Of a stretch of 64,000 bases of DNA, positions 11,946 through 44,500 are shown piece by piece (within the stretch, counting starts at the first letter, position 1; the number at the start of each line of letters is the position of its first letter). The notes under the pieces are model-generated. The model was given only the letters and a program-made list of their open reading frames with translations. It made no database searches and was not told where the DNA came from. The stretch comes from Candidatus Babeliales bacterium (GTDB taxonomy: Bacteria; Babelota; Babeliae; Babelales; JACPOV01): positions 7,006 to 71,005 of the forward strand of contig JBAVOR010000016.1 in NCBI GenBank assembly GCA_049692255.1. Direction: 5' to 3'. A program made the position numbers and the translations under genes.

Positions 11946-12682
11946 TTTTTTCCTTCAAATTCACGCGTCAGGTGTAAAAAAACTTCTTCCAATTTACCTT
12001 TTTGAAAGTTTTTTATTAAATTCTGTGGAGTATCAATCATCTTTATTTCTCCCTGATGCAGCACGCAAACACGGTCAGATAATATTTCTGCTTCGTCAAG
12101 ATAATGGGTCGTTAAAAGAACGGTAACCCCATCAGCCCGGATATCTTTAATATATTGCCACAAGAGATGGCGTACGTCTGGGTCAAGAGCAACCGTTGGT
12201 TCATCAAGAATAATAAATTGTGGCGCATGCATGAGGGTGCGTGCAATCATATACCGTTGCTTCCAACCCCCAGATAAACTATCGGGTGATTGATACAAAA
12301 ACTGTCCTATGCCCAAACGGCTATCCAGGTAATCGATGCGTGTTGCAATTGCTGCACTGTCCATGCCGTAGTAACGGCCCGCATTCACCATATTTTCTTT
12401 GTTAGTTAATAACGGATTCAGATTATTTTTTTGTGCACAGTATCCAATATGCATGCGATAGGCGGGAATATCATGGAATATAGATGCGCCATTAAAAAGA
12501 ATGTCTCCGGCTGATGGCGGATGAATGGTGGCAATCACCGATGAAAGGGTTGTTTTACCGGCTCCATTAACGCCGAGCAAGCTAACGATCTCTCCTGCAA
12601 AGAGATCAAGATTCACTTTTTTAAGCGCTAAAAGTTGACCGTACTTTTTTTCTAAGGAACGTACTTGAATGAGTTTGTTCAT
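11942..12682 (-). CDS. ABC transporter ATP-binding protein
   Basis: Walker A 'GVNGAGKTT', ABC signature 'LSGGWKQR', Walker B 'ILDEP'. Confidence 0.85.
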   Translation of the reverse strand: MNKLIQVRSLEKKYGQLLALKKVNLDLFAGEIVSLLGVNGAGKTTLSSVIATIHPPSAGDILFNGASIFHDIPAYRMHIGYCAQKNNLNPLLTNKENMVNAGRYYGMDSAAIATRIDYLDSRLGIGQFLYQSPDSLSGGWKQRYMIARTLMHAPQFIILDEPTVALDPDVRHLLWQYIKDIRADGVTVLLTTHYLDEAEILSDRVCVLHQGEIKMIDTPQNLIKNFQKGKLEEVFLHLTREFEGKK

Positions 12683-12765
12683 GGATTTTTTTTTAAAAAT
12701 ATTTCTCTACTACCCAAGCATACGAATTTTCATTCATTTGCGCAATTAAGATCAGCATCTATGGG

Positions 12766-14304
12766 TTATGCAACAACGCTATTATTAATTGCCTTGAGTT
12801 GTTCATTGTATATGTGGTTGAGCTGGACAATAAACTGGTTTCCTTCGTCTTTTGGTATTGTATTACTATGGCGTTTAATGTATAGTTCTATAGTTTTAAA
12901 AAGTTCCTTGAGTTTTTGCTCATTCTTTATTTCTACCGCATCAAGAGCAAACGAATCAAGCGCGCCATTAATGCTATCTTTATTATCTGTATACTCTTGG
13001 TCATACGTTTCGAATGATTTTCGCTTGTTCGTATGATTACATAATTCAGGAATAATAAAATTGAGTGGTTTCGATTGTGTAGCTATAGCATTACAGTTGT
13101 TTATAAACTCTTCTGTTTTTGTTTGATCGATATCAAAATGAAGAACATTAATGTCATTATTGCTCGAATTCGTCCAGTTATTTGAACCAAATCCGAGCAC
13201 ATGATGACTATTATTTTTTGTTATTCGCGCAAACCCTTTAATATGATTCGATTGCGCAAATTTTCCTGTTTTATGCGCTTCATCATAATTAAATACTGAG
13301 ACAGGAACCCCTTTTTTATACAGTGCTACTAAAAACTCTTGTGTCGGTTGTTTTTTTAAGGCGTCCTTGTCTACCGTAACTAATTTGAGTATTTTCTTGT
13401 TTGCCAATTGAAGCGCTGCCTCTTTCGTATCGCGATCATCCCAACTGTACATATTAATGTAACAAGAGTCCCCTTCTTGGCAGTTTTTTATAATAGTAGC
13501 AATCGATTTGTTTAAGTTATAGTTCAGCGAAGAAATAATGGTCTTTCCAGGAGGAGTGTGTTGAAGAACGGTGTTTTTGGTGCCATATTGAATAATAGTT
13601 TCTTGTTTTACGTTTGCATGTATGTCAGAAACCGCTTCAAACAAGTTTTTAACAAATTCATATGTTGCTTGCTCTACTGCATATTCGGCCATTTCGCGAT
13701 TGGCCATGTTGGTTATATTTTGTGATCCACTATACGCACGATATTGTCGTTTTTGATTAGCATCGACATAACTCCACGCCATTGTTTTGGTGTGTAATTT
13801 TTGCGCATATCCATTATTTTTTAGTAACTGTTGTTCATTATAAAATTGTATAGGTACAGCTGTACAATCGAGTTTTGCGTAGCGCATTGCAGTCAATACA
13901 GCATTTTTTTGTGATGCGCAACAGAAGAGATTGATGTTGACTCCTTCTGTATGTTTTTTAGCGAGTGTTGTAAGGAATTCAGTGTTGGTAATCAGAAAAT
14001 ATAACCCATAAAAATTGTCCCCCTTTTTCATTTTTTCAATAGATTGTGCAGCAAGAATTAATGCTCGATTGTTATCTTGTGCTGGATAAGAGATAGTAGC
14101 TATCCGTGGCGTGATTTGCCAGTCATAAGGGGGTAGAGTAACGGCTGCGGCCTGGTTTTTTTCAAGCTCTGCCTCTTGTGCTTCGAATGCACAGAACTGA
14201 TCTGTTATTTGAGATTCCATAGAGTAACTGTGACTATGCACGATAATAGTAAGAAATGCTACGATATGCCCTCTATGCACTAAAGTGCGATCCCTAAAAT
14301 ACAT
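12766..14304 (-). CDS. Hypothetical protein with weak, degenerate PLD/HKD-like 'HxK...GSxN' motifs
   Basis: 512 aa ORF. Two 'H-x-K ... G-S-x-N' stretches ('HTK...GSQN' and 'HIK...GSNN') with non-canonical spacing. True start may be the internal Met at ~14220. Confidence 0.45.
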   Translation of the reverse strand: MYFRDRTLVHRGHIVAFLTIIVHSHSYSMESQITDQFCAFEAQEAELEKNQAAAVTLPPYDWQITPRIATISYPAQDNNRALILAAQSIEKMKKGDNFYGLYFLITNTEFLTTLAKKHTEGVNINLFCCASQKNAVLTAMRYAKLDCTAVPIQFYNEQQLLKNNGYAQKLHTKTMAWSYVDANQKRQYRAYSGSQNITNMANREMAEYAVEQATYEFVKNLFEAVSDIHANVKQETIIQYGTKNTVLQHTPPGKTIISSLNYNLNKSIATIIKNCQEGDSCYINMYSWDDRDTKEAALQLANKKILKLVTVDKDALKKQPTQEFLVALYKKGVPVSVFNYDEAHKTGKFAQSNHIKGFARITKNNSHHVLGFGSNNWTNSSNNDINVLHFDIDQTKTEEFINNCNAIATQSKPLNFIIPELCNHTNKRKSFETYDQEYTDNKDSINGALDSFALDAVEIKNEQKLKELFKTIELYIKRHSNTIPKDEGNQFIVQLNHIYNEQLKAINNSVVA

Positions 14305-14418
14305 ATGCTATGTTCCCCTATAAGAGCGAATTATTGATACTATAAATACATATAAAGTATCTTAATAATGCCACATATAATGCCATTTGCCAATTGATTT
14401 GTGGCGACTTTGCAGCGC

Positions 14419-15312
14419 TTACCGCTTGAGTATGATTTTGCGTACCGATAGACCGGTGTCATCATCTTGATTGAGATACGCTATAATAGTGGCTAAATGG
14501 GTCAAAAAAGGGTCGAACAAAAATTCGATATGAGACAGGCCGCGCCAACCAATTTGCACAGAGGCTTGCATAAGACGTTGACCACCATCAAATACCCGTT
14601 CAGAAAATAACGGTACTTTTTTGCTGTCCTTTTGTACGCGCATGTGCGCATACATACCTTGTGGGTCCATAACTTGCATTGAATCTATGCGCGAGAATAG
14701 AGAAATTACCTTTTTAAAGCACGGGGCATGTACCAGATTTTTTGTTTCTTCTTGCACGGGGCACGCCAGCAAAATCAGCTCATCAATAACAAAGTCACTG
14801 TCTTTGTTGCAATACAATGCCATATTCAACGCAACGTTACCTCCATGGCTGTGTGTGATAATACGCACGTAGGGCGCAACAGCATATTTTTGTTGTGTAG
14901 CACGCACGAGTTGGGCTATCTGTTCATACAATACCAGCGCTTCTTTTTTGCGTGTCTGAAAATCAAGTTTTCCCGACCAGCCAAATAGATAAAAATGCTC
15001 TGCAGGGAACAAGGCGGGGCATGCTTTGCTGAGTGTGTTAGCAATGGTACGGTGGTGGTATTTAGGGTCAAGGTCTTGTGCGTGTGAGATGCCAGGCGGG
15101 CTAAAAGAAAAACGGGTCATTATTTTACTAAAAAAAATCTTACTGCCATGCACCCAGATAGTGATGATAGGGCGTTTATGGGGCTTTGAAAACGCATGTG
15201 GTGGAAGCGGCGATTCAATAATAATTTTCTGTGTATCGTGTGGCTGTAATCGGGCATTATGCATAATACTGACTAACAGGACTATTGATAGGCGCATGCG
15301 TTTATAATTCAT
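14419..15312 (-). CDS. Secreted alpha/beta-hydrolase (putative lipase/esterase)
   Basis: Signal peptide. Nucleophile-elbow-like 'ITHSHGGN'. 297 aa. Confidence 0.5.
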   Translation of the reverse strand: MNYKRMRLSIVLLVSIMHNARLQPHDTQKIIIESPLPPHAFSKPHKRPIITIWVHGSKIFFSKIMTRFSFSPPGISHAQDLDPKYHHRTIANTLSKACPALFPAEHFYLFGWSGKLDFQTRKKEALVLYEQIAQLVRATQQKYAVAPYVRIITHSHGGNVALNMALYCNKDSDFVIDELILLACPVQEETKNLVHAPCFKKVISLFSRIDSMQVMDPQGMYAHMRVQKDSKKVPLFSERVFDGGQRLMQASVQIGWRGLSHIEFLFDPFLTHLATIIAYLNQDDDTGLSVRKIILKR

Positions 15313-15358
15313 ATTTTTTTAACCCTTTCGTCTATTCATAATACCAGAGAGTGCATTT

Positions 15359-16672
15359 TTATGAAATAGTGGTGGCCAGTGCGCTGAGTTTTTGGGTTAG
15401 CTGGGTAAGAGATTCGGTAAGCACGTTTGTTGAAGAACGGGGATTGCGGATCGGTTTCTCTGGCAACAGGGCCTCCTGACGCTTATAGATAAAGAAATAG
15501 CCGGTGGGACCGGTTGGCGAGCCGTTAATTTCAGTAATTGCATCAGCAGAAAGTTCTGTGCCTACACGGGTAATGGTGCTATCATCACACCGGTACCAAA
15601 CCTGTTCTTTTTTAACATAGGCCCAGTAATGACCCCCAGACAGACCGCCTCCTTGGACCACCACGCTACTTAATGCATAGTGTGATGCTGCTTTACTACT
15701 CGTTGATGCTAATGCAGGATGCAGGGGGCGGACCCACGGTGACACATCAAGCTCCAAAGGAATAGCGATGGCGTGATTCACTTTTTGACGGGCAAGAGCG
15801 GTATAGGTGTAACGGTTCACATTAATACAAAGATAGGGAGGTGTGGTTAAAAAAAATAATTGTTTGATACAATCAGTGCGCACGTGGCCGCTGTTATCTT
15901 TGTATGCATCGAGTAGTTCCGGTTTGAAATATACTGCTAAGCACGAAGCAAGATCGGTGAGCGGTGTTTGTTGCGCGTCCAAAGCGGGCACGGTAAGAAC
16001 GCCAGGGCCATTTTCTGCCGTATCAGTTTCTAGCAATGGGGTGGTTGGTGCCTCATGAGCAGGGCAAGAAATGCGCGATACATAGATATTATGAAACAAC
16101 TGTTTAATACGCGTCTGTTGTATTTTCTGTTGCAGCAATACTGATTGGGGATTTTGTTTTAACTGTTCTTGCAATTGAGCAAGCGCACTATTGAGTACCA
16201 CTGCTTCTTTGTCGGTTATCGCGTGGCTAGTGCAACTATCTAAAAAACGGATAATAAATTCTCCCGCATCTTGTTGCGAACATACTTGGGCCTCAAAGAA
16301 TTCATTGTATGCACTGTCGCCTAACTTTTTGAGAGGGCCTTGCGTACAAGAAAATGTATGGGTGCCATCCAGATACTGTTGCACCAGTTGCGTAAAATAA
16401 TGTGCAGTAGGGTTAGTTGCCAGAGGAAACAGGGTTGATGCATTAGATCCGTACAAAATAGAAGTGAACGCCGGAATGTTGAGAAGTGCTTGCACTGATG
16501 CATTTAAAAAGCAGGTGTTGCCGCAGTTAAGCAAAGCGGGTGGTGTTGCGTTGTTGTGCGCGTTCATTAACAAGAATATGGTACTAATAATACGCAACAC
16601 CTGCGATACGTTATTATTTCTCATGCAGTACCCTGTCAGGCGCATGCATGTTTCTATTTTTATGCCAGGCAT
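15359..16672 (-). CDS. Eukaryote-like ubiquitin-specific protease (USP/UCH, peptidase C19) deubiquitinase
   Basis: Cys box 'LLNCGNTCFLNASVQALL'. His box 'GGHYWAYVKKE'. Asp box 'WYRCDDSTITRV'. Confidence 0.8.
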   Translation of the reverse strand: MPGIKIETCMRLTGYCMRNNNVSQVLRIISTIFLLMNAHNNATPPALLNCGNTCFLNASVQALLNIPAFTSILYGSNASTLFPLATNPTAHYFTQLVQQYLDGTHTFSCTQGPLKKLGDSAYNEFFEAQVCSQQDAGEFIIRFLDSCTSHAITDKEAVVLNSALAQLQEQLKQNPQSVLLQQKIQQTRIKQLFHNIYVSRISCPAHEAPTTPLLETDTAENGPGVLTVPALDAQQTPLTDLASCLAVYFKPELLDAYKDNSGHVRTDCIKQLFFLTTPPYLCINVNRYTYTALARQKVNHAIAIPLELDVSPWVRPLHPALASTSSKAASHYALSSVVVQGGGLSGGHYWAYVKKEQVWYRCDDSTITRVGTELSADAITEINGSPTGPTGYFFIYKRQEALLPEKPIRNPRSSTNVLTESLTQLTQKLSALATTIS

Positions 16673-16821
16673 GCTCGAACGGTTCTATGCATAATAGCAC
16701 AAACAGGATGCACCATTTTACTGCTGCAGGCATACCAACTCCCGAGCGGCGAGTATCAAAAAAGTATGCATGCATTTAATAGGCCGTTTGCCAGAACTTG
16801 ATGGTGATGCTGGTGCCTGCT

Positions 16822-18207
16822 TCATTTACTTCCCTTTTTTTCGATTGTTTCAATGTGAGTATTGAGTTCTTCAATAAGCTCTTTAGCGTGTTGTTTAGCA
16901 GTGCTATCGTTGAACTCCTGATCTGTTTGGTATGGGCTCTTTGTAATAACTTGTTCAAGTTCTCGTTTATAATTCTTATATGGTGATAGTTTATTCGCAG
17001 AAAGCATTTCAGCACGATCCAATATGTTCATATGATAACGATAAAAATCTATTTCTCTTAAGTTGACTGTATGTTGTAGCATAGTAATATGTTTTTTTAA
17101 TGCTTCTACTTTTGCAATTAATGCTTTTTTTGCTTCAGCAGTGTCAGGGATTTTTTTAAGAATATCTTCATATTTTTTTATGAGGTCTGTTTGTTCCTGA
17201 ATAAGCTTTTGATAATCCCTTGTTAGATTATACCAAGCGTCGCTAGTCCTTTCATTTAACGAAGGGTTGTTGTAAAAATCTATGCTCTCGCGTTGCTTAG
17301 CATTGACGTCTTCTGTAGGATTTTTGCTGTCTAAATATGCAAGTAATGAAAATTCATCAGACCCGCGAGAACCATGCCTCCAATTTTTACCCTGTAAGGA
17401 CTCTGCTAGTTGGTATTTGCTTTCGAGAGCTTTTTTGAGCTCGCCATCTACAGATCCCTGAAATTCTGCAATGGTTTGTTGCCAGCTTGTAATTCTTTCA
17501 CTCGGCTTTTTTCCACTTCCTGTCCAGTTTTGTTCTCTCTGTTCGGCTAAGTGCTTGCTATTGAGCGAATAGCTTGAATTGTTCCAAATCGTATTATCCT
17601 GTTCCAATTGTTCAGAAAGTTGTTGTAATGCAGCTGTTTTTTCGGTTGGGTTTTGTATAGTTTCTATTCTGGCTAATTCAGTATTAATTGGTTTAATGAA
17701 ATTGTCTCCAAAATAGCTTGCCTCTGATTCTGTATTTTTTTCACTCCATTCAAATAACGTATCCAATGCTGTATCGATCTCTTGTTTAAGTTCTTCTTCA
17801 GGTGTGAGTTGCTTTTTTTGCGAAGTTTGGATAAATGTACTCGTTGATTCTCGTGTAAAACCACTTCGCTTTTGCAATTCTTTCTGCAATTCTTCTTTTG
17901 TTAGGCTTTTTTTTGTCGATTTTAACGTACTCGTTTCTTCTTCTAGTGTAGGCAACTCAACTGCTTCCCCTGGCCTCAATGCAATTCCGCCTTCAGGAAG
18001 CGGCTTGCCTTGATACCACCAATCTCTAATTCCTTGCTTGATTCTTTGTCCTAGTGAGTCTTTTTTAATTTCTTCTACATTAGCAACGCTTGATTTGATT
18101 TTTAGCTCTCCTGCCCACAGATTTGGTAGATGGTACATGGTAATAAGAACGATAAGTATACGAATCACGCGCACTCCTTTTTTTGATTTTTTACGTACAA
18201 CGTACAA
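16822..18207 (-). CDS. Secreted coiled-coil protein, hypothetical
   Basis: Signal/TM anchor 'VIRILIVLITMYHLPNLWAGE'. Long E/K/Q-rich heptad-like stretches. 461 aa. Confidence 0.5.
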   Translation of the reverse strand: MYVVRKKSKKGVRVIRILIVLITMYHLPNLWAGELKIKSSVANVEEIKKDSLGQRIKQGIRDWWYQGKPLPEGGIALRPGEAVELPTLEEETSTLKSTKKSLTKEELQKELQKRSGFTRESTSTFIQTSQKKQLTPEEELKQEIDTALDTLFEWSEKNTESEASYFGDNFIKPINTELARIETIQNPTEKTAALQQLSEQLEQDNTIWNNSSYSLNSKHLAEQREQNWTGSGKKPSERITSWQQTIAEFQGSVDGELKKALESKYQLAESLQGKNWRHGSRGSDEFSLLAYLDSKNPTEDVNAKQRESIDFYNNPSLNERTSDAWYNLTRDYQKLIQEQTDLIKKYEDILKKIPDTAEAKKALIAKVEALKKHITMLQHTVNLREIDFYRYHMNILDRAEMLSANKLSPYKNYKRELEQVITKSPYQTDQEFNDSTAKQHAKELIEELNTHIETIEKKGSK

Positions 18208-18352
18208 TCAATGTAGCGCATGGGCAGCACGCAGAGTCAATGCTTTGTGTAAAAAAGATGATCAATGCGGTAAATTATGTTACAATGCGTAATCAATGTA
18301 ATTTTAAAATCATGTGCGTGTTAATGCTACACGCAATCAAGGGGTGATTTAT

Positions 18353-19297
18353 ATGAAAAAGATAATGCTATTAACGCTGTTTTTTGTGTCTGCTGTGTCA
18401 GTGAGGGCAAGTGAGAGCAGACATGAGCACGGGAGCGTTTCTCCATTTAATAACGCAGAGTCCCTTGATGGTAACATAGATATTAATAGTCCAGAATATC
18501 TACGCGCTCAGCTCGAAAAAGCGAATGCTGAAAAAAAGGCATATCTGACTTTCATTCAAAAATCAATTAAAAACACTGCAGCTGTTATGACTATAGGTGA
18601 TATGATGCAAAGAGGTTTTAGCGGTGGCGTAACCTCGGGTATTGCGCAGATAACGAGCAACGTTATTGTGGGAAGTATTACCAGCGGAGCCTTGATGATT
18701 CCTATGTTAGCCTATGATAAATATATTGAACAGAAAATAAAAGCGAGTGGAAAGTATGCGCAAACAGTTGCTGAAGTTAATGCACAAACTGCCGCGGAGG
18801 CGCGCGCGCAACTTTTTGGCGGTGTTACCGTAATGAATAAAAAGATGGTCCAAGTCCCTGGGGTGTTTCAAGAATTTAGCGAATCAATTAAATATGCTAT
18901 TGACCCTAAAGACCCAGAGTTGAAAACTTTTTTACGCAAAACGCACGGTGAACTGCTTACGCAAACACTCGCCACGTTTACTGAATTCTCTGAAGAAGAG
19001 CATGAAAAGAATATGGCAACTGCTACAGAGCTGGCTACTTTGTTGGCGCATGTTAAGCAGGCGGCTGAAGAAAAAACAAAATTAACCGAAGAACAGCAAA
19101 AAATAGTGCAAGAATCGATCAATACAGATCTCAAGCGCGCCCACTATCTGCTGCTTTTACTGCAGCACGGGGCGCGGTACGACCAACCAGGATACACGCA
19201 AGACGGGCGTATGGTAGAAGATTTTGGCATTGCGCTAGCTGCAGGGACTGTTATTACGGGCATTGCTACAGCAGGCTATACGTTACTTGGGAAATAA
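18353..19297 (+). CDS. Secreted hypothetical protein
   Basis: Start at 'MKKIMLLTLFFVSAVSVRA' signal peptide. AGGGG Shine-Dalgarno upstream. 315 aa. Confidence 0.5.
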   Translation: MKKIMLLTLFFVSAVSVRASESRHEHGSVSPFNNAESLDGNIDINSPEYLRAQLEKANAEKKAYLTFIQKSIKNTAAVMTIGDMMQRGFSGGVTSGIAQITSNVIVGSITSGALMIPMLAYDKYIEQKIKASGKYAQTVAEVNAQTAAEARAQLFGGVTVMNKKMVQVPGVFQEFSESIKYAIDPKDPELKTFLRKTHGELLTQTLATFTEFSEEEHEKNMATATELATLLAHVKQAAEEKTKLTEEQQKIVQESINTDLKRAHYLLLLLQHGARYDQPGYTQDGRMVEDFGIALAAGTVITGIATAGYTLLGK

Positions 19298-19415
19298 TAT
19301 AAAATCGCGCCAATACGTATTCTGTAATAAGCGCTTTTTCTTATATCCTTCAATTCTGTTTCACGATTTCTGCAAAAGGGACAATGACGCGCACCAATCA
19401 TTTGCAATAGTTTTT

Positions 19416-20078
19416 TTAACGAGAAAATATCGCACTAAACAGCTGTGTTAAATCAAATTTAAATGCAACGCTCGTTGATTGTGCAGAAATTTGTATTTTT
19501 TGTGCGACATATTTTTCAGGAAAATGTGTTTCTACTAACGAGCGCATGAGCCGTACAATCTCTACTCCCTTTTCTTCAATGGTCGTATGCAGTGTGCCTG
19601 TGAGATAATTATGCCACAACTCATCAAAGTAGGGGTGCAACTCAACAGGTGTAGCAAGGCGATTCTCTGGCCAATGCGTAACAAATGTAAGCATCGTTTT
19701 TTTGTATAGATTATTTTCTAACATATGAGTGCCTCCGTAGTGGCCAACGCTCAGCCCAATAACAAAGGGAAACATAATAACCCCACCTGCATTCATTTCA
19801 AAAGTATCCATATCTATGCAGTCAGTGAGCAGCGCTGCAGTGTGAAGCATATGCCCGCTTGTCGCTGCTAAAAGGCCAGCGGTAACAGCAATACTCACTT
19901 TTTTAAGCTTAAATAGCGCACTGCTTTTTTCTTCATTAACACGAGTCATGAAAACGTGTTCCATGTACGCCCATTCATTTCCCTGGAAAAGTGCTGGTAT
20001 CGCTGCAATAGACGAAGCGGCAATGCATGCGCTAAAAATAAATGCTTTTTGCAATTTGAACACGAATAAAACTCCCAC
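19416..20078 (-). CDS. Hypothetical membrane protein
   Basis: 220 aa ORF with several hydrophobic segments. Confidence 0.4.
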   Translation of the reverse strand: MGVLFVFKLQKAFIFSACIAASSIAAIPALFQGNEWAYMEHVFMTRVNEEKSSALFKLKKVSIAVTAGLLAATSGHMLHTAALLTDCIDMDTFEMNAGGVIMFPFVIGLSVGHYGGTHMLENNLYKKTMLTFVTHWPENRLATPVELHPYFDELWHNYLTGTLHTTIEEKGVEIVRLMRSLVETHFPEKYVAQKIQISAQSTSVAFKFDLTQLFSAIFSR

Positions 20079-35441: not shown

Positions 35442-35596
35442 AATTTGAACTAAAAACGTATTTGATTATAAGAAATAATTTCGCTGCAAAAAAAAGCAAA
35501 AAAACTATTGTATAAGTATGCTTGCATTTTTTAAAAGGATTTGATTTTATCAATCTAATTGATTGTGTCCTGATATCTAAAAAAAGGTTGAGTGAT

Positions 35597-38500
35597 ATGT
35601 ATGGATTAACTATTTTTCTGGCGATGTTATTTTCTTCTTTTGCTTCTCTTGACGCTACTCTGCAAACAAGACGTTTTCATAATATTCTGGTTGGAAATAA
35701 TACCACTACAAATTATCTCAATGTTTTAAGACAAGTATTTATTGATGGGGATCTTTTTGTAAAGGGAACCATTAATGGTTCAGGGGGAAATTCAGGATTT
35801 ATTCAAGCAGTGCCAGGAGCGACGATTAATGCGGTACCACGGTTTGCTAATGCCAATGGTTCACAGCTCGCTAATTCTTCTGTTTTAATCGATAATGCGG
35901 GCAACGTCACGTTAAATGGTATTACTAAAAATGGTATTACTGTTGCATGGCCATCAACTGCTGGTGCTGCGGGCACGTTTTTAGCGAATGATGGTGCGGG
36001 TAATTTAGTATATGCTACCCCTGCTGGTGCAGGTAACGTATCAACAGCATTAAATTTTACCACTAACAATGCATTAACGCGTGTTGATCTACCCAGTGGA
36101 GTAAATAATATTCAACAATCGGTGGTGACGCTTGATAATAGCGGCAACATTGCCGGGGTGAATCAATTAGTAGCAGGAACTTTTTTTGGTTCTTTGCAAG
36201 GTAATGCGGCCAGTGCTACTAATTTTACTGGGTCATTAGCGGGTGATGTGAGTGGTACACAAACTGCTACTGTTGTCAATTCGGTAGGCGGTCAGTCTGC
36301 TGCTGCTGTGGCAAATGCTGCATTCGCAGTTACGAATGCAACGCCAAACAGTGTGCCGAACACGCTGGTTGAACGTGATGCATCACGTAACTTTAGTGCG
36401 GGTACTATTACGGCCAGCTTAATGGGCGCTGCATCATTAAATGTGCTAAAAAGTGGCGATACCATGACAGGCCCTTTGGTAATGGGGACGCAGACAGCAG
36501 TTCGTCTACAAGATGCGGGTGGTACGAACTATGTGGGGTTGAATGCACCCAGCAGTGTAACTAGTAGTTATACCATGAGCATGCCGGGCACAGCACCGGT
36601 CTCTGGGCAATTTTTACAAGCCTCTGCAGCCAATGCATTGCAGTGGGCAGACATTGGGGGTTTACCATCGACTGGTCGTACTATTTATGTATCAAAAGAT
36701 GGCAGTGATAGTAACGATGGTTCGCTTTCTGCTCCTTTTTTAACCGTTGCACATGCGTTACTAGTCGCTAATACGCTTTCAACAATTTCTAATCCTGTGG
36801 TGGTGCAAGTCGGCGCCGGTGCGTTTATAGAAAACAACTCTGGTGGCGCTTTGGCTATTACAGCAGATGGCATCACGCTTAAAGGTGGTTCAAACCAAGC
36901 AACCATTATTGCACCAACAACGTTATCGATTAACTTATTTAATGTGACAACTCCGAATGTATTATTCAGGGATATTAATCTCAACGCTGGTGTGAGTGGG
37001 TCTACGGCAGCTGCTATTAATATTAATGTGGGGGTCACGGGATTCGGCGGTGGTTGTACTAACGTAAACATTGCACAGTTCCAAACAGGTATTGCACTTA
37101 ACAATTCCAACAGCACTCCTCCCATATTTGTTATCAATTCTGTCAATGCGCAAGGCAATGGTACCGCTGTAGCGGTCAGTAATTACCGTCTTATTATGCA
37201 AAGTTCATCAATATTGGGCCCTTATCTTTCGAGCATTATTCAAAATACCGGCATTTCATTAACGGGTATTAATACGTTGGCAACCATAGATTCATGTGTG
37301 TTTAGATTGTTATTGAACGGCATTACGGTAGCTGGCGGTGCCCCTTTGCGCATTACTGGCAGCCAATTTATTAATATGCAAAACGGCATAGTGTGTTCAG
37401 GAGGGGGTAATGCAGACGTTGTTGGTTGTAATTTCCTGGTGAATACTACTAGTTCAATCAATGTCTCTGCATCAGGAGCTGGCACAACAGTAATAATTGA
37501 TGGTGCAATTTTTAATTGTGTTGATGCTACCAACACGCCGCAGGGAACTGCTGTGCAAGTAACAACGGGTGGATCATTAACGGTGAACTCATCCACTATT
37601 TCAGGTGCAGCACTTGGCATGCAAGCTGGCGCAGCAGGAGATACGAGTACGACAACACTGTTGTCTGTTGGTACCGATATTATTGGTTGTACCGCTGACT
37701 TTACTCAAGCAGGTACATCAACATTCAGATTTGTCGGCGGAGTATTTGATTCTAATTTGGTCACTATTGCCAACGGCACGAATGTCCATCTTTCTCTATT
37801 TGACAGAACCTCTGGCGAAGCATTAACGATTGGTAACAGCACAGATACGAGCCAAGTATTGTACCGCGCATTCAATGGTGAAGCATCATTACCTTTTACC
37901 TCGTATGAGCCAAACTATTATGGCTCTAAAGGGCTTCTTTTCCAAAATCCCAATGCAGATGCAACATTCAGTGGTGTGCAGGCAGCCAGTAATGATGCAA
38001 ACTATTATGTCGTTACCGGCAGCAATACGAATCAAGCGGGCATTAATTTAATTTCTGATACATTAAATATTGGGACTTCTGACTTTGTGCGTGGCTGGAA
38101 TATCAGCAAATTAGGCACATCAGGTAATTTAACGTTCAACTATTCAAATAATGACACTGGTGGCCAAGCAGCGCGCGGCAGCAACCCAGTGATGCAACTG
38201 GATGGCTTTAATAATCAGGTGTTATTTCCCGCGGCAATCAACTCGCCGCTACCGACAAACACCGTGGCTAAATTGGTCTGGAATGGTGATACCGATTTAT
38301 ATCGTGGTGCTGCAGGCACGCTGCAAACAGATGGTAATTTAATTGTTGGCGGTTTAACACCAAACACCGCTGTGACTACTAATGGCAGCGATCAATTAAC
38401 ATCGAGCGTAACCACTGCAACGGAACTGGGCTATGTGTCTGGCGTTACTTCTGCTATACAACCACAGATTAATAATAAAGTTTCAAAAACGGGTGACACG

Positions 38501-41500
38501 ATGACCGGGCCATTGATAATGGCAACACAAACCCCCATTCGTTTTCAAGATGCGGGAGGTGTTAACTATGCAGCTCTCAATGCACCAACTGCAGTAAGCA
38601 GTAGTTATACAGTCAGCTTGCCAACAGCGGCGCCGGCAGCAGCGCAATTTTTACAAGCAGCAACTCCGACAACATTGCAATGGGCAAGTATTGGGGGGGT
38701 GCCCAATGTGAGTCGTACCATCTACGTAGCACAGGGGGGTAATGATAGTAACGATGGCTCATTATCTGCCCCATTTGCTACAATTGCGCATGCGGTGGCA
38801 GTAGCTAATACGTTATCAACATTAACCAATCCGGTGGTGGTTCAAGTTGGTGCTGGCACCTTTATTGAAAATAATTCAGGTGGAGCAATTGCCATCACTG
38901 CAGATGGTATTACCATTAATGGCAGCTCTATTACGGGGACCATTGTAGTACCAAATACGATTTCTAATGCATTATTTAATGTAACAACACCGAACGTACT
39001 CTTTTCTAATATCTATCTCGATGCGGGAACTACGGGATCAACAGCAGCGGGTATTAACGTGAACACCAGTACTACTGGTGAAGGTGGCTGTCATGATATT
39101 GTGCTTTCGCGTTTCCAAACTGGCCTAGCTATCAATAATTCAAATGTAAGCAGCTCCCCTATATTTATTATTAGTTCAATCGAAACGCAAGGGAACAGCA
39201 CTGCTATTGCGGTCAATAATTACCGCGCTATTATTCAAGGTTCTTCATTCTTAGGGCCATTTGTTGCAGGGGCCATTGCGAATACCGGTATTGCATTGAC
39301 GGGAACTCAGACATTAGCAACCTTACTCGCTAACTCATTTCGATTGTTAAGTACTGGCATTACTATCACTGGTGGTGCAGATATGCGTATTACAGGCAGC
39401 AACTTTGATAACATGCAAAATGGGGTAAGCTGTTCTGGTGGCAGTAATGCAGAAATAGTGGGATGCAATTTTATAATTAATGAAGCATCATCGGTGAACA
39501 TATCGGCAGCGGGAGCTGGAACGAATGTTATAGTCAATGGTTGTATTATCGATTGTGCCGATGTGACTGATGCACAGCAAGGAACAGCAGTACAATCGAC
39601 AACCGGTGCAATATTGGTTGTTGGTGCATCAAATATTTCGGCAGCGGCTGTCGGTATCCAATGTGGCACCACGGGCGATACGAGTAGTACCATAGTTGCT
39701 GTATTTTCTACGAATCTGGTTGGTTGTATTAATGATATTACTCAAGTAGCTACAGCAAACCTTCAATTTGTAGGTGGTGTATTTGATTCCAACTTACTGA
39801 GCATTGCCAACAGTGCCAACGTAACCATTTCTGCATTTGATCGATTTTCTAATAATGCGTTAACAATTGGTAATAAAACTGATGTTAGTCAACCTCTTTA
39901 TAAAGTATTAAATGGTGAAGCCTCGTTACCATTTACCTCTTATGAACCAAACTATTATGGCAATAAAGGGCTTCTGTATCAAAACCCGAATGCTGACGCA
40001 ACATTTAATGGTGTGCAAGCGGCCAGCAATGATGCTAACTATTATGTCATTACCGGCAGCAATACCAACCAAGCAGGCATCAACTTAATTTCTGATACAT
40101 TAAATATTGGGACTTCTGATTTTGTGCGTGGTTGGAATATCAGTAAATTGGGTACGTCAGGTAATTTAACATTCAACTATTCAAATAATGACACTGGTGG
40201 CCAAGCAGCGCGTGGTAGCAATCCAGTGATGCAGCTTGATGGATTTAATAATCAAGTGTTATTTCCCGCGGCAATCAATTCACCGCTACCGACAAACACC
40301 GTGGCTAAATTGGTCTGGAATGGTGATACCGATTTATATCGTGGTGCGGCAGGCACGCTGCAAACAGATGGTAATTTAATTGTTGGCGGTTTAACACCAA
40401 ACACCGCTGTGACTACTAATGGCAGCGATCAATTAACATCAAGCGTAACCACTGCAACGGAAATTGGATTTGTTTCTGGCGTCACTTCTGCAATACAGAC
40501 CCAGCTTAATAGTAAATTTCCTGCATCGGGTGGTACATTGACCGGTCCGCTGACATTACCTGCAGGAACTGCAGCGGCGCCATCATTAAATTTTGCTGGA
40601 AGCACTACTACGGGCCTTTCTGCCGCAACGGCAAATACGTTATCCTTTGATACGAATGGTGTTGAACGAATGAAAATCGGAGCAACGGGGACGATAGCTA
40701 TTGATGGATTTACCACTGCGGGTGTAGTACATAATGACGCAAGTGGAAATTTGAGCAGTTCGTTAATTGTTGATGCAGATATTACTACTGGCACCATTAC
40801 CGATGATAAATTACAAACGATTACCACCGGCGGCAAAGTAGCAAACTCTGCTACCACTGCAACATCAGCAAATACACTCAGTACCATTGTCTTGCGTGAT
40901 GGGACTACTGGTGGTTTTAGTGCTGGTGCAATCAGCGCAACGAGCGTAACGGCATCAGCAAATCCTGGATTTTTTGGTAATTTATCGGGCAATGCGACAA
41001 GCGCAACTACTGCTGCATCTGCTACGAGCTTTACTGGTCCATTGCTCGGTGATGTGACCGGTACGCAAAGTGCAACGGTAGTATCAACCGTTGGTGGAGC
41101 TACTGCGGCTGCAGTAGCAACGGCTGCTAATGCAGTAGCCAATGCAACTAATCTGGCTACACCAAGCACCTTGGTATTGCGCGATAGTTCCGGTAATTTT
41201 AGCGGAGGAACTATTACTGCCACAACAGGCTTTTCAGGGAACTTGACGGGTAATGTGACTGGCAATGCCACAACGGCAACGAGCGCAAACACGGCTGGGT
41301 CAGCAACTAATTTTACTGGCTCATTGTCTGGTGATGTCACAGGAACACAGGGCGCAACGGTGGTGAGCTTTGTTGGAGGAAAATCGGCTGCATCAGTTGC
41401 CAATACCGTTACTACCGTGAATGCAGCAACAAGCAATAACACACCAAATACGCTTGTCTTACGTGACGGTAGTGGTAACTTTACTACTAATCAGATTACT

Positions 41501-44500
41501 ATTGCCGGTTCGGTAACAAATCCAACAGATACAGCAACCAAAGCATATGTTGATAGCGTCGCAGCAACCGGGTTAGAAGTGCATACCCCTGCAGTAGTAG
41601 TCAGTACCACTAATGTTGCACTCAGCGGGCTACAAACGATTGATGGCATAACACTAGTTGCTGGAAATCGTGTACTTTTGGTTGGCCAGACCAGTCAAGT
41701 GCAAAATGGGTTATGGGTAGCAGCATCAGGTTCATGGACACGACCAACCGATTTCGCAACGGGTACTGAGGCAGGCCAAGCATATGTGCTTATTTTAGAA
41801 GGTACTAATTTTGGCGGCTCAAGTTGGGTATGTACGACGTCCACAGCAATCATTGATACAGATCCAATTACTTTTGTTGAGTTTTCCCTACCATCACAAA
41901 CTACGGGGGCCAATTTAGGTTCTGGTACTGGTATTTTTGCTAACAAAACTGGCCAAACGCTTAACTTTAAAAGTTTGCTGGAAGGAACCCATGTTGTTAT
42001 AACCAATGATGCTAATACGGTAACACTGGCAACCGACGCAACGAGCGCAGACACCATCAGCACTATAGTAGCACGTGATGGTTCCGGTAATTTTAGTGCA
42101 GGTACTATTACCGCGAGTTTAATTGGTGCGGCATCATTAAACGTATTAAAAGCGGGTGATACCATGACAGGGCCATTAGTTATGGCTACCCAAACGCCAA
42201 TACGTTTTCAAGACGCTGGTGGCACAAACTATGCGGCATTACAGGCTCCAGCAGCGGTAAGTAGCAGTTATGCCGTTGCATTACCGACCGCTGCACCAAA
42301 TGCGGGGCAATATTTACAAGCACTTTCGTCTACTTCCTTACAATGGGCATCGGTCGGTGGTACACCAAACGTGAGTCGTACTATATACGTATCCCAAGAT
42401 GGAAGTGATAGTAATAATGGGTCATTCTCATCACCATTTTTAACTATTGCGCATGCAGTATCGGTTGCAAATAGTCTTTCGACATTAACTAATCCGGTAG
42501 TAATTCAAGTGGGTGCAGGGGTGTTTGTAGAAGATAACTCTGGCGGCGCTATTACTATTACGGCAGATGGCATTACTTTAAATGGTGCGTCTACGATCGG
42601 CACCATCGTAGTGCCAAACACCTTATCAAACACGCTGTTTAATGTTACATCGCCGAATGTGTTATTTTCTAATATCTATCTCGATGCGGGAACTACGGGA
42701 TCTACTGCAGCGGGCGTAACGATCAATACAAGTATCACCGGTGATGGTGGATTTTTAAATGTAGTTCTTTCTCGCTTCCAGACCGGTTTGTCAATTAATA
42801 ACTCAAATATAAGTAGTACGCCGATATTTATCGCTGATGGTATTGAAACGCAAGGCAATGGTACAGCTATCGCGGTAACCAATTACCGTGTTATTATTCA
42901 ATGTTCATCGTTCTTAGGGCCTTTTGGTAACGCAGGATCAATTCAAAATACTGGAATTGCATTGACTGGATCAAGCACATTAGCAACGATGTTGGCCTGC
43001 TCATTTCGTTTATTGAATACGGGTATTTCGGTAACAGGCGGAGCGGCCATGCGTACTACGGGAAATAATTTTGATAATATGCAAAATGGTATTGTCTGCT
43101 CTGGGGGCGGTGATGCGAATATTGTTGGTTGTAACTTTCTTGTTAATGAATCTTCTTCAGTGAACGTGTCTGTAGCGGGCGTTGGTACTGAAGCTATAGT
43201 TAGTAGTTGCATATTCGATTGCCCTGATGCAACTGATACGCCGCAAGGTACAGTGGTGCAAGCAACAACTGGTGCATCATTAACAGTTAATTCATCTACC
43301 ATAACGGGGGCCGTTGTTGGTATTCAATGTGGTACGACTGGAGATACCAGCAGTACTGTGGTTACGATAGATTCAACTGATTTGCAAGAATGCACTAATG
43401 ATATTATGCAAGTGGGTACGTCGACGCTTCGTTTTGTAGGTGGCGTATTTGATACGAATGCAATAAGTATTGCCGATGGTACCAATGTGCATATTTCTGC
43501 TTTTGATAGAACTTCTGGTGAAGCGTTAACGATTGGTAATAATACTGATGCGAGTCAAATGGTGTATCGTGTGCTCAATGGCCAAGCCGCATTACCTTTT
43601 GTATCGTATGAGCCCAACTATTATGGCAACAAAGGACTTTTATATGAAAACGCCAATGCAGATGCAACATTTAATGGTGTGCAAGCAGCAAGTAACGATG
43701 TGAGTTATTATTTAGTTACGGGCAATAACACGAATCAGGCGAGTATTAATTTAATTTCTGATACGGTCAATTTTGGCACTAGTGATTCGGTACGTGGCTG
43801 GAATATTAGTAAATTGGGTACATCTGCTAATTTGACCTTCAATTATTCGAACAATGACACCAGCGGACAAGCAGCACGCGGTAACAATCCGGTGATGCAA
43901 CTCGATGGATTTAATAATCAGGTTTTATTTCCGGCTGCTACCAATACCCCATTACCAACTAACACTGTAGCAAAATTAGTTTGGGCTGGTGATACGAATC
44001 TATATCGCACAGCTGCCAATACGCTGCAAACGGATGGTAATTTTATTATCGGTGGCAATCTCACTGTTGATGCTCTAACGTCTGGTGCAGTAAATCCAAA
44101 TACCGCTATAGTGACTAACGGAACTAATCAATTACTTTCCAGTGTTACCACGGCAACGGAAATTGGATTTGTTTCTGGCGTCACTTCGTCAATACAAACA
44201 CAGCTGAATAGTAAATTTCCTGCATCGGGTGGTACATTGACCGGTCCGCTGACATTACCTGCAGGAACTGCAGCGGCACCATCATTAAATTTTACGGGCA
44301 GCACTACTACGGGCCTTTCTGCTGCAACGGCAAATACGTTATCATTCGATACGAATGGTGTTGAAGCTATGAATATTAATGCAAGTGGGGTAGTGAGTAT
44401 TGATGCATTTACCACTGCAGGTGTAGTACATAACAATGCAAGTGGTAATTTGAGCAGCTCCCTTATTGTTGATGCAGACATTACTACTGGCACCATTACC

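Follow-up and report, generated by a model that had tools for sequence, protein, structure and literature searches.

A predicted exported ubiquitin-specific protease with a C-terminal heptad helix in a member of the Dependentiae

Why a bacterial chromosome should encode a eukaryote-type ubiquitin-specific protease (USP), and where such an enzyme might act, is the question raised by one locus in a 64,000-nucleotide stretch of DNA from a Candidatus Babeliales bacterium (contig JBAVOR010000016.1), which is called the window here. An earlier note, made from the letters of the window alone, had drawn an open reading frame (ORF) for a peptidase of family C19 at positions 15359-16672 and described its product as a secreted effector directed at host ubiquitin signalling. 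Judged from its residues and predicted structure, the gene product is an intact, canonical deubiquitinase-type enzyme of the C19/USP family, predicted to be catalytically competent. The reading favoured here, and held to be quite probable, is that this is the canonical USP of an intracellular, protist-parasitic member of the Dependentiae, exported from the bacterium and removing host ubiquitin.

The maximal ORF in the ORF list lies on the minus strand at exactly those coordinates (15359..16672). It begins with ATG, encodes 437 amino acids and ends with the stop codon at 15359..15361, while the ORFs that overlap it on the opposite strand are short (60-93 amino acids) and unsupported. Three in-frame ATGs (M1, M10 and M17) precede the hydrophobic stretch near the N-terminus. 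M17 is the start chosen by the gene caller for the identical protein in the public assembly (421 amino acids). The closest homologues share a short N-terminus, in which M-K-K/R is followed by a hydrophobic core, a small-residue site and WPPSLxNCGNTCF. Since the gene caller on the identical contig uses Met17 and the homologues have this short N-terminus, the true start is likely Met17 (ATG at 16622..16624), giving a protein of 421 residues. The exact USP sequence occurs in a single Logan assembly only, SRR28002569, where it lies on one 27-kb contig.

Membership of the USP family is clear from profile and sequence comparisons. The Pfam UCH profile (PF00443) matches residues 47-396 over profile positions 3-254 of 254, with an E-value of 4.6e-38 and 131.7 bits against a gathering cut-off of 23.9 bits, so that the protein passes the Pfam check that the earlier note had proposed. 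A phmmer comparison with PDB sequences gives 95 matches at E <= 0.01; those listed are all USPs, led by USP15 (1.9e-16) and followed by USP8, USP11 and USP5. All three C19 signature boxes (Cys, His and Asp), which had been described as intact, are found at the expected places in the translation. The Cys box, NCGNTCFLNASVQAL (16484..16528, minus strand), aligns with the USP15 box GNTCFMNSAIQCL, and the motif originally quoted for it, GNTCFLNASVQAL, translates from 16484..16522. The catalytic Cys54 is encoded at 16511..16513, and the oxyanion-hole residue Asn49 (16526..16528) stands five residues upstream, in the context NCGNTCFLNA.

The other conserved boxes follow the same pattern. The His box GGHYWAYVK (15611..15637, minus strand) contains His348 (15629..15631) and the aromatic gatekeeper Tyr349, a tyrosine whose gatekeeper role has been described (PMC10643670). 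The Asp box WYRCDDS (15578..15598, minus strand) provides Asp363 and Asp364. In the phmmer alignment, the Cys and His boxes match those of USP15 residue for residue, and the His and Asp boxes align to its GGHYTAF...FDDS. Between them, alignment and translation reveal a QQDAGEF box (Q133-F139; 16256..16276, minus strand), with Asp135 and Glu138 as the acidic residues by which USPs grip the ubiquitin tail at Arg72/Arg74; for the conserved Glu, this function in tail binding is documented (PMC10719079). In an alignment of 15 sequences that includes eukaryotic USPs, N49, C54, Q133, H348, Y349 and D364 are invariant, and E138 and F139 are kept in at least 90% of the sequences.

The predicted structure agrees with this assignment. 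The AlphaFold model of the protein has a predicted local distance difference test score (pLDDT) of 83.2 and a predicted template modelling score of 0.79, and it displays the Thumb-Palm-Fingers 'hand' fold. Between 290 and 317 residues of the model superpose onto full USP domains, the top Foldseek match being USP18. The Fingers subdomain spans approximately residues 196-290 (15803..16087, minus strand) and is built from strands 196-203, 214-221, 225-229, 268-276 and 280-290, so the protein is not a fingerless USP of the TssM type, in which the Fingers are replaced by a Littlefinger loop. At the CxxC positions of the USP zinc ribbon, one Cys is retained in each case, Cys203 (SCPAH) and Cys268 (TDCIKQ), compared with CPEC and CPNC in USP15. 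Because only one Cys is left at each former CxxC, zinc binding by the Fingers is probably lost. The zinc ribbon has also been lost in USP7 and USP14.

The N-terminus carries features of an export signal. The hydrophobic stretch that had been pointed out there is real and corresponds to residues 25-36, VLRIISTIFLLM. It is part of the signal-like segment MRNNNVSQVLRIISTIFLLMNAHNNA (16547..16624, minus strand), recognised from the translation, the N-termini of relatives and the comparison of the family. Both its basic n-region (MRNNNVSQVLR) and its hydrophobic core of 9-12 residues (IISTIFLLM) are typical, and the Cys box begins only about 12 residues past the signal region; a mature N-terminus would come just about 10-12 residues ahead of the catalytic Cys. 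This export signal makes a host-directed secreted enzyme the best reading, as the earlier note had proposed, although the same note went too far in treating USP-type enzymes as typical bacterial effectors. Its suggestion of a type IV secretion signal is unlikely to point to the correct route, because the N-terminal signal is of the Sec type and type II secretion is the only or core secretion system in published Dependentiae genomes. A type II system is the sole secretion system detected in Babela massiliensis (PMC4378268), and type II secretion is reported as core in TM6 (PMC4776705). Release of outer-membrane vesicles has been seen in Chromulinavorax.

This USP is one representative of a large, apparently lineage-specific family of small proteins. 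Searched exhaustively with HMMER, 1.84 billion cluster representatives yielded 37,494 proteins with a USP domain at E <= 1e-3, of which 162 reached E <= 1e-30; architectures were counted on the 119 small members among the top 149 matches. The family comprises approximately 100 or more clusters at 50% identity. On per-domain re-scoring, the small family proteins reach 120-617 bits and cover the family profile from about position 1-10 to about 385-390, whereas eukaryote-like USPs do not exceed about 94 bits and are confined to positions 25-325. The USP of the window matches positions 2-388 with 555.6 bits, and it fits the family layout, which consists of a Sec-type signal, an early Cys box, a single USP domain, a variable linker and a C-terminal heptad helix. 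A signal-like N-terminus is present in 93-94 of the 119 small members, and the catalytic Cys lies within the first 50 residues in 104 of them. The same signal-USP-linker-helix layout is found in the USPs of two Babeliales metagenome-assembled genomes (MAGs; L002 and L003). The family members that can be linked to a taxon are four (the window, L002, L003 and P0143), all from Dependentiae/Babeliales, and the other approximately 100 are metagenome proteins. Cluster look-ups covered 20 members and gave one name that carries a taxon and a second that states the protein function only. One member in a Babeliales MAG is annotated by NCBI as 'ubiquitin carboxyl-terminal hydrolase family protein'.

Some further proteins emerged alongside this family. 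Two family members, P0149 and P0154, each stem from a contig of the same length (32,691 bp), which suggests the presence of two paralogues in one genome, possibly adjacent. Four very long proteins, P0136 (3205 amino acids), P0139 (1918), P0151 (2009) and P0264 (2916), contain 10-13 separate USP-domain matches each and, from their sequences, resemble eukaryotic arrays of tandem USPs that gene prediction has fused; their high rank comes only from the summing of domain scores, the best single domain reaching 38-59 bits. A different bacterial USP architecture, from another phylum, is encoded in a Bacteroidetes MAG (JAAGZN010000679.1, 3659..6055, plus strand; L004). Its 798-amino-acid protein combines a signal- or lipoprotein-like N-terminus, a long Asn/Asp-rich region and a C-terminal USP domain with GGHYWAYVK...WYNANDS.

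The C-terminal part of the family layout is built from the variable linker and the conserved helix. Behind the catalytic domain, a linker rich in Pro, Lys and Arg, QEALLPEKPIRN (15443..15478, minus strand), is modelled with low confidence (pLDDT <50 at residues 409-413), and family members differ widely in its length (about 10 to about 70 residues; alignment columns 427-490). It leads into an amphipathic helix at residues 411-436, ...LTESLTQLTQKLSALATTI (15365..15442, minus strand), for which AlphaFold gives a pLDDT of 90-95 over residues 421-437. Leu and Ile follow each other in this helix with a 3-4-3-4 heptad spacing; the family consensus is LTKSLKNLSQSLQGLAKRLK, and the present USP has LTESLTQLTQKLSALATTIS. 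Within the final 35 residues, 88-91 of the 119 tails show an a-d-a-d heptad pattern; shuffled sequences give it in 15 cases on average (maximum 24), and internal windows in 11%. The tail exposes a narrow Leu stripe accompanied by polar or basic faces, a pattern typical of coiled coils and not of membrane anchors. Neither this helix nor the large family was mentioned in the earlier note, and both were found here.

The helix was also considered as a general sorting signal, and this was rejected for the window, L002, L003 and L004: among all ORFs of at least 100 amino acids in these four sequences, a hidden Markov model of the tail matches only USPs. Most likely, the helix on its flexible linker would position or regulate the enzyme, through targeting, oligomerisation or self-activation. 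A more far-reaching proposal is that the Dependentiae harbour a large, lineage-specific radiation of minimal canonical USPs exported by Sec and type II secretion, in which the zipper helix is a new module, acting either as a tether to the bacterial surface or to a host membrane or protein, or as a USP7-like self-activator, and that these enzymes form a distinct mechanistic class. This proposal is put forward only tentatively.

The genomic setting identifies the organism and indicates how long the gene has resided there. Genes of the window encode MurE, a membrane pyrophosphatase, NrdA/NrdB, a VanX-like dipeptidase, an ABC ATPase, CNNM/CorC, RpoD, DnaG, Lgt and MnmG, and farther along there are MraY-like, UmuDC-like, DEAD-helicase and GH3 genes. 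The window is thus an ordinary bacterial chromosome. The best named relatives of its MnmG are from Candidatus Dependentiae bacterium (67%) and Candidatus Babeliales bacterium (63-65%), and no match exceeds 71% identity; since the best MnmG identity is 70-71%, the lineage appears to be without a close sequenced relative. RpoD and CorC are 71-73% identical to those of the two Babeliales MAGs. By these protein comparisons, the host is an undescribed member of the Dependentiae/Babeliales (TM6), and not an organism of the Legionella or Chlamydia-like setting that the earlier note had named. Members of the Dependentiae live as obligate parasites inside the cells of amoebae and other protists (PMC4378268, PMC6561590, PMC4776705).

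When species-representative genomes were scanned with the family alignment, the USP relatives in L002 and L003 emerged at 32-33% identity. In the window and in both MAGs, a dnaG-rpoD-corC block lies about 5-6 kb from the USP gene in the same orientation. By BLAST, neither the four genes between corC and the USP gene nor the downstream genes of the window resemble those of L002/L003. A conserved module of the USP with an upstream partner was rejected, as only the regional anchor dnaG-rpoD-corC is common to the three loci. Between the window and the Babeliales MAGs, the USPs share about 33% identity where RpoD shares about 72%, and this difference indicates that the USP evolves fast, as host-interface proteins often do. 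The GC content of the gene (0.457), its GC content at third codon positions (0.429) and its codon usage are mid-range for genes of the window. Recent horizontal transfer was considered and rejected, composition and codon usage being unremarkable. The shared dnaG-rpoD-corC neighbourhood and the window-typical composition argue for an old acquisition, now a vertically inherited resident gene, and against contamination or recent transfer.

The way in which such an enzyme could serve an intracellular parasite may be outlined as follows. The Sec-type signal would take the USP across the inner membrane, and release would then occur by the type II system, with outer-membrane vesicles as the alternative. 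Cys54, His348 and Asp363 would hydrolyse the bond after the C-terminal Gly-Gly of ubiquitin. Host ubiquitin would be removed from the bacterium, its compartment or host proteins, and ubiquitin-dependent autophagy or degradation would be blunted. A Cys54-dependent ubiquitin isopeptidase activity is expected, because the Simkania enzymes SnUSP1-3 are ubiquitin-specific and depend on Cys, His and the gatekeeper Tyr.

Several points weigh against this proposal. The signal peptide was assessed heuristically, from hydrophobicity and family comparison, and positions -3/-1 of the putative cleavage site are poor in this USP (MNA/H or NNA/T). On account of this poor site, the N-terminus may be either a cleaved signal or a signal anchor, and the protein could be membrane-anchored. 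The type II system in this genome is assumed from the phylum, and no gsp (type II secretion) genes are found among the scanned ORFs of the 64-kb window. Moreover, type II secretion or vesicles alone do not cross the host vacuolar membrane, which stands in the way of access to cytosolic ubiquitin if the bacterium stays in a vacuole. The choice between ubiquitin and another Gly-Gly modifier is not readable from sequence, the family is tied to its lineage by four taxon-linked members only, and its activity, export and localisation are predictions from sequence.

The main rival to the proposed release of the USP concerns the location of its action. According to it, the USP is retained at the surface or in the envelope, by an uncleaved anchor or by the C-terminal helix, and clears ubiquitin off the bacterium, as proposed for TssM, including ester-linked ubiquitin on lipopolysaccharide (LPS). 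The poor signal-peptidase site would fit such retention, and the conserved helix on a flexible linker resembles a tether. Moreover, the non-catalytic domain of TssM has been proposed to localise that enzyme to the bacterial surface (PMC10719079), and TssM-type enzymes are reported to reverse LPS ubiquitylation (PMC10371091). However, close relatives carry good cleavage sites (SYS/Y, VNS/W and VYA/G), the Leu stripe of the tail is coiled-coil-like and does not resemble a membrane anchor, and a lipobox is absent. Retention is regarded as possible, with a rather low probability. A different question is whether host ubiquitin is the substrate at all, as the enzyme might act on NEDD8, on a ubiquitin-like protein of the protist or on a bacterial or periplasmic target. 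USP folds that prefer ISG15 (USP18, the top Foldseek match) or SUMO (USPL1) are known, SnUSP2 shows some cross-reactivity with ISG15, and the signal peptide puts the enzyme in the periplasm first. Such a substrate is nevertheless considered unlikely.

Two other explanations concern the origin of the gene and the activity of its product. Eukaryotic contamination, a chimeric assembly or a very recent transfer might be suspected from the fact that the closest solved and named relatives are eukaryotic and that the lineage is known from metagenome assemblies only. Such an origin is effectively refuted by the uninterrupted ORF with bacterial genes on both sides of it on one contig, by the same neighbourhood in two independent Babeliales MAGs, by the match of composition and codon usage to the window, and by the separation of the family from eukaryotic USPs, with a signal and tail of its own. 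Similarly, an inactive pseudo-enzyme that merely binds ubiquitin is very improbable, as all catalytic and oxyanion residues are intact and invariant across the family. A ubiquitin-like conjugation or defence operon was also considered and rejected. Genes for E1, E2 or ubiquitin-like proteins are not among the neighbours of the USP gene, which encode PLD-like (phospholipase D-like), lipase-like alpha/beta hydrolase and orphan secreted proteins; neither the USP gene nor its four neighbours have PADLOC defence-system matches, and a system working in the cytoplasm would not be compatible with a signal peptide.

The USP gene is one of several consecutive minus-strand genes, and each of their products starts with a hydrophobic signal-like segment. 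Just upstream, 16822..18207 (minus strand) encodes an orphan protein of 461 amino acids, rich in Glu, Lys and Gln and coiled-coil-rich by eye, with a signal-like N-terminus (…VIRILIVLITMYHLPNLWA); it matches no family, and L002 and L003 lack a homologue at the corresponding position. Directly downstream are two genes, both for products with hydrophobic N-termini. The lipase-like alpha/beta hydrolase of 297 amino acids (14419..15312, minus strand) shows weak PGAP1/Tle3-type matches and, by eye, a THSHGG nucleophile-elbow-like motif, and a 512-amino-acid protein (12766..14304, minus strand) contains two PLD-like stretches (PLDc_2, E 4.5e-14), with H-x-K motifs seen by eye. These two proteins are candidate secreted phospholipases, and a BLAST comparison with six ORFs flanking the USP in each Babeliales MAG gives no homologue of either. 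Judged by the predicted N-termini, the genes resemble a local group devoted to exported proteins for host interaction, and this group is not conserved in the two MAGs. Promoter and terminator scans of 12000..19500 yielded sites no commoner than in shuffled sequence, and they are therefore uninformative on operon structure. In L002 (11207..12190, minus strand) and L003 (11444..12424, minus strand), the gene directly downstream of the USP is 89% identical between the two MAGs, far more conserved than the USP or the other neighbours.

Other parts of the window contain features of separate interest. A single ORF of 3918 amino acids occupies 35522..47278 (plus strand) and has a signal-peptide-like start at Met26 (MYGLTIFLAMLFSSFASLDA). 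Thr, Ala, Gly, Ser and Asn make up 58% of its residues, and GN[LV][ST]GN-type repeats are present, with no Pfam match at E <= 1e-3 and no transmembrane-like segments. The product looks like a giant secreted fibre or adhesin, with no family assigned. A translesion polymerase pair, UmuD-like (Peptidase_S24) and UmuC-like (IMS family), is encoded at 53185..55022 (minus strand). The 64-kb window contains no tRNA genes, and approximately 15 of its ORFs of at least 150 amino acids are without a Pfam or NCBIfam match.

Bacterial USP-type deubiquitinases (DUBs) and secreted C19 hydrolases of Dependentiae are already in the literature, and the general picture is unchanged. The size of the Dependentiae family, the minimal signal-USP-linker-helix layout and the conserved C-terminal helix appear undescribed in the searchable literature. 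Dependentiae are widespread and almost uncultured parasites of protists, and their host manipulation is essentially unknown. A compact USP of approximately 380 residues, with full Fingers and predicted Sec export, is an easy expression target, and through it the biochemistry of ubiquitin interference in these bacteria would become accessible for the first time. With this USP, enzymes of the type are represented in three independent lineages of bacteria, the earlier two being those of Burkholderia TssM and the Simkania SnUSPs. If the helix does act as a tether or self-activator, the family would be a distinct mechanistic class and not just another copy of a eukaryotic enzyme.

Eukaryotic USPs (USP2, USP7, USP12, USP14, USP15 and others) and giant-virus USPs share the fold, catalytic residues and ubiquitin-tail box of the present USP at 18-26% identity; the eukaryotic enzymes differ in having no signal peptide, and none carries the present C-terminal motif. 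A viral origin was rejected, as giant-virus USPs are no closer than eukaryotic ones, and sequence comparison singles out no eukaryotic or viral group as the donor. Among bacteria, most DUBs belong to the OTU type or the CE clan, and the USP type is accordingly not the usual effector form. The described USP-type DUBs are Burkholderia TssM (PMC10719079) and three Simkania enzymes (PMC10643670), to which genome-level predictions in Babela (PMC4378268) and Amoebophilus, with two USPs (PMC8831229), may be added.

The closest precedent by lineage is Babela massiliensis, in which Pagnier et al. 2015 predicted secreted C19 ubiquitin C-terminal hydrolases (PMC4378268). The phylum, the C19/USP family, secretion by a signal peptide and the reading as exploitation of host ubiquitin are the same. 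The Babela case is a one-line genome annotation and was compared by description, whereas the bacterium studied here belongs to another lineage, its MnmG being no more than 71% identical to any database sequence. In Simkania negevensis (Chlamydiota), SnUSP1-3 were found by experiment to be ubiquitin-specific and mostly linkage-promiscuous, with activity that needs Cys, His and the gatekeeper Tyr (Boll et al. 2023; PMC10643670). The similarity of SnUSP1-3 to eukaryote-type USPs extends over the whole USP domain, including the canonical Cys, His and Tyr, and Simkania is likewise amoeba-associated and intracellular. By description, SnUSP1-3 are set apart as large proteins of another phylum, with a catalytic domain starting from about residues 60-190 and with hydrophobic regions. 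The phylum of Simkania has type III secretion. The present USP, in contrast, is minimal, with a signal, a Cys box within about 12 residues of it and a C-terminal zipper helix.

The second experimentally described system is TssM of Burkholderia pseudomallei/mallei, a USP-related enzyme secreted by the type II system (Hermanns et al. 2023; PMC10719079; PDB 8pz3). TssM is divergent and fingerless, whereas the present USP has full Fingers. The likeness lies in the predicted route, Sec and type II export instead of type III, IV or VI, and in the possession of an extra non-catalytic module, which in TssM is thought to localise the enzyme.

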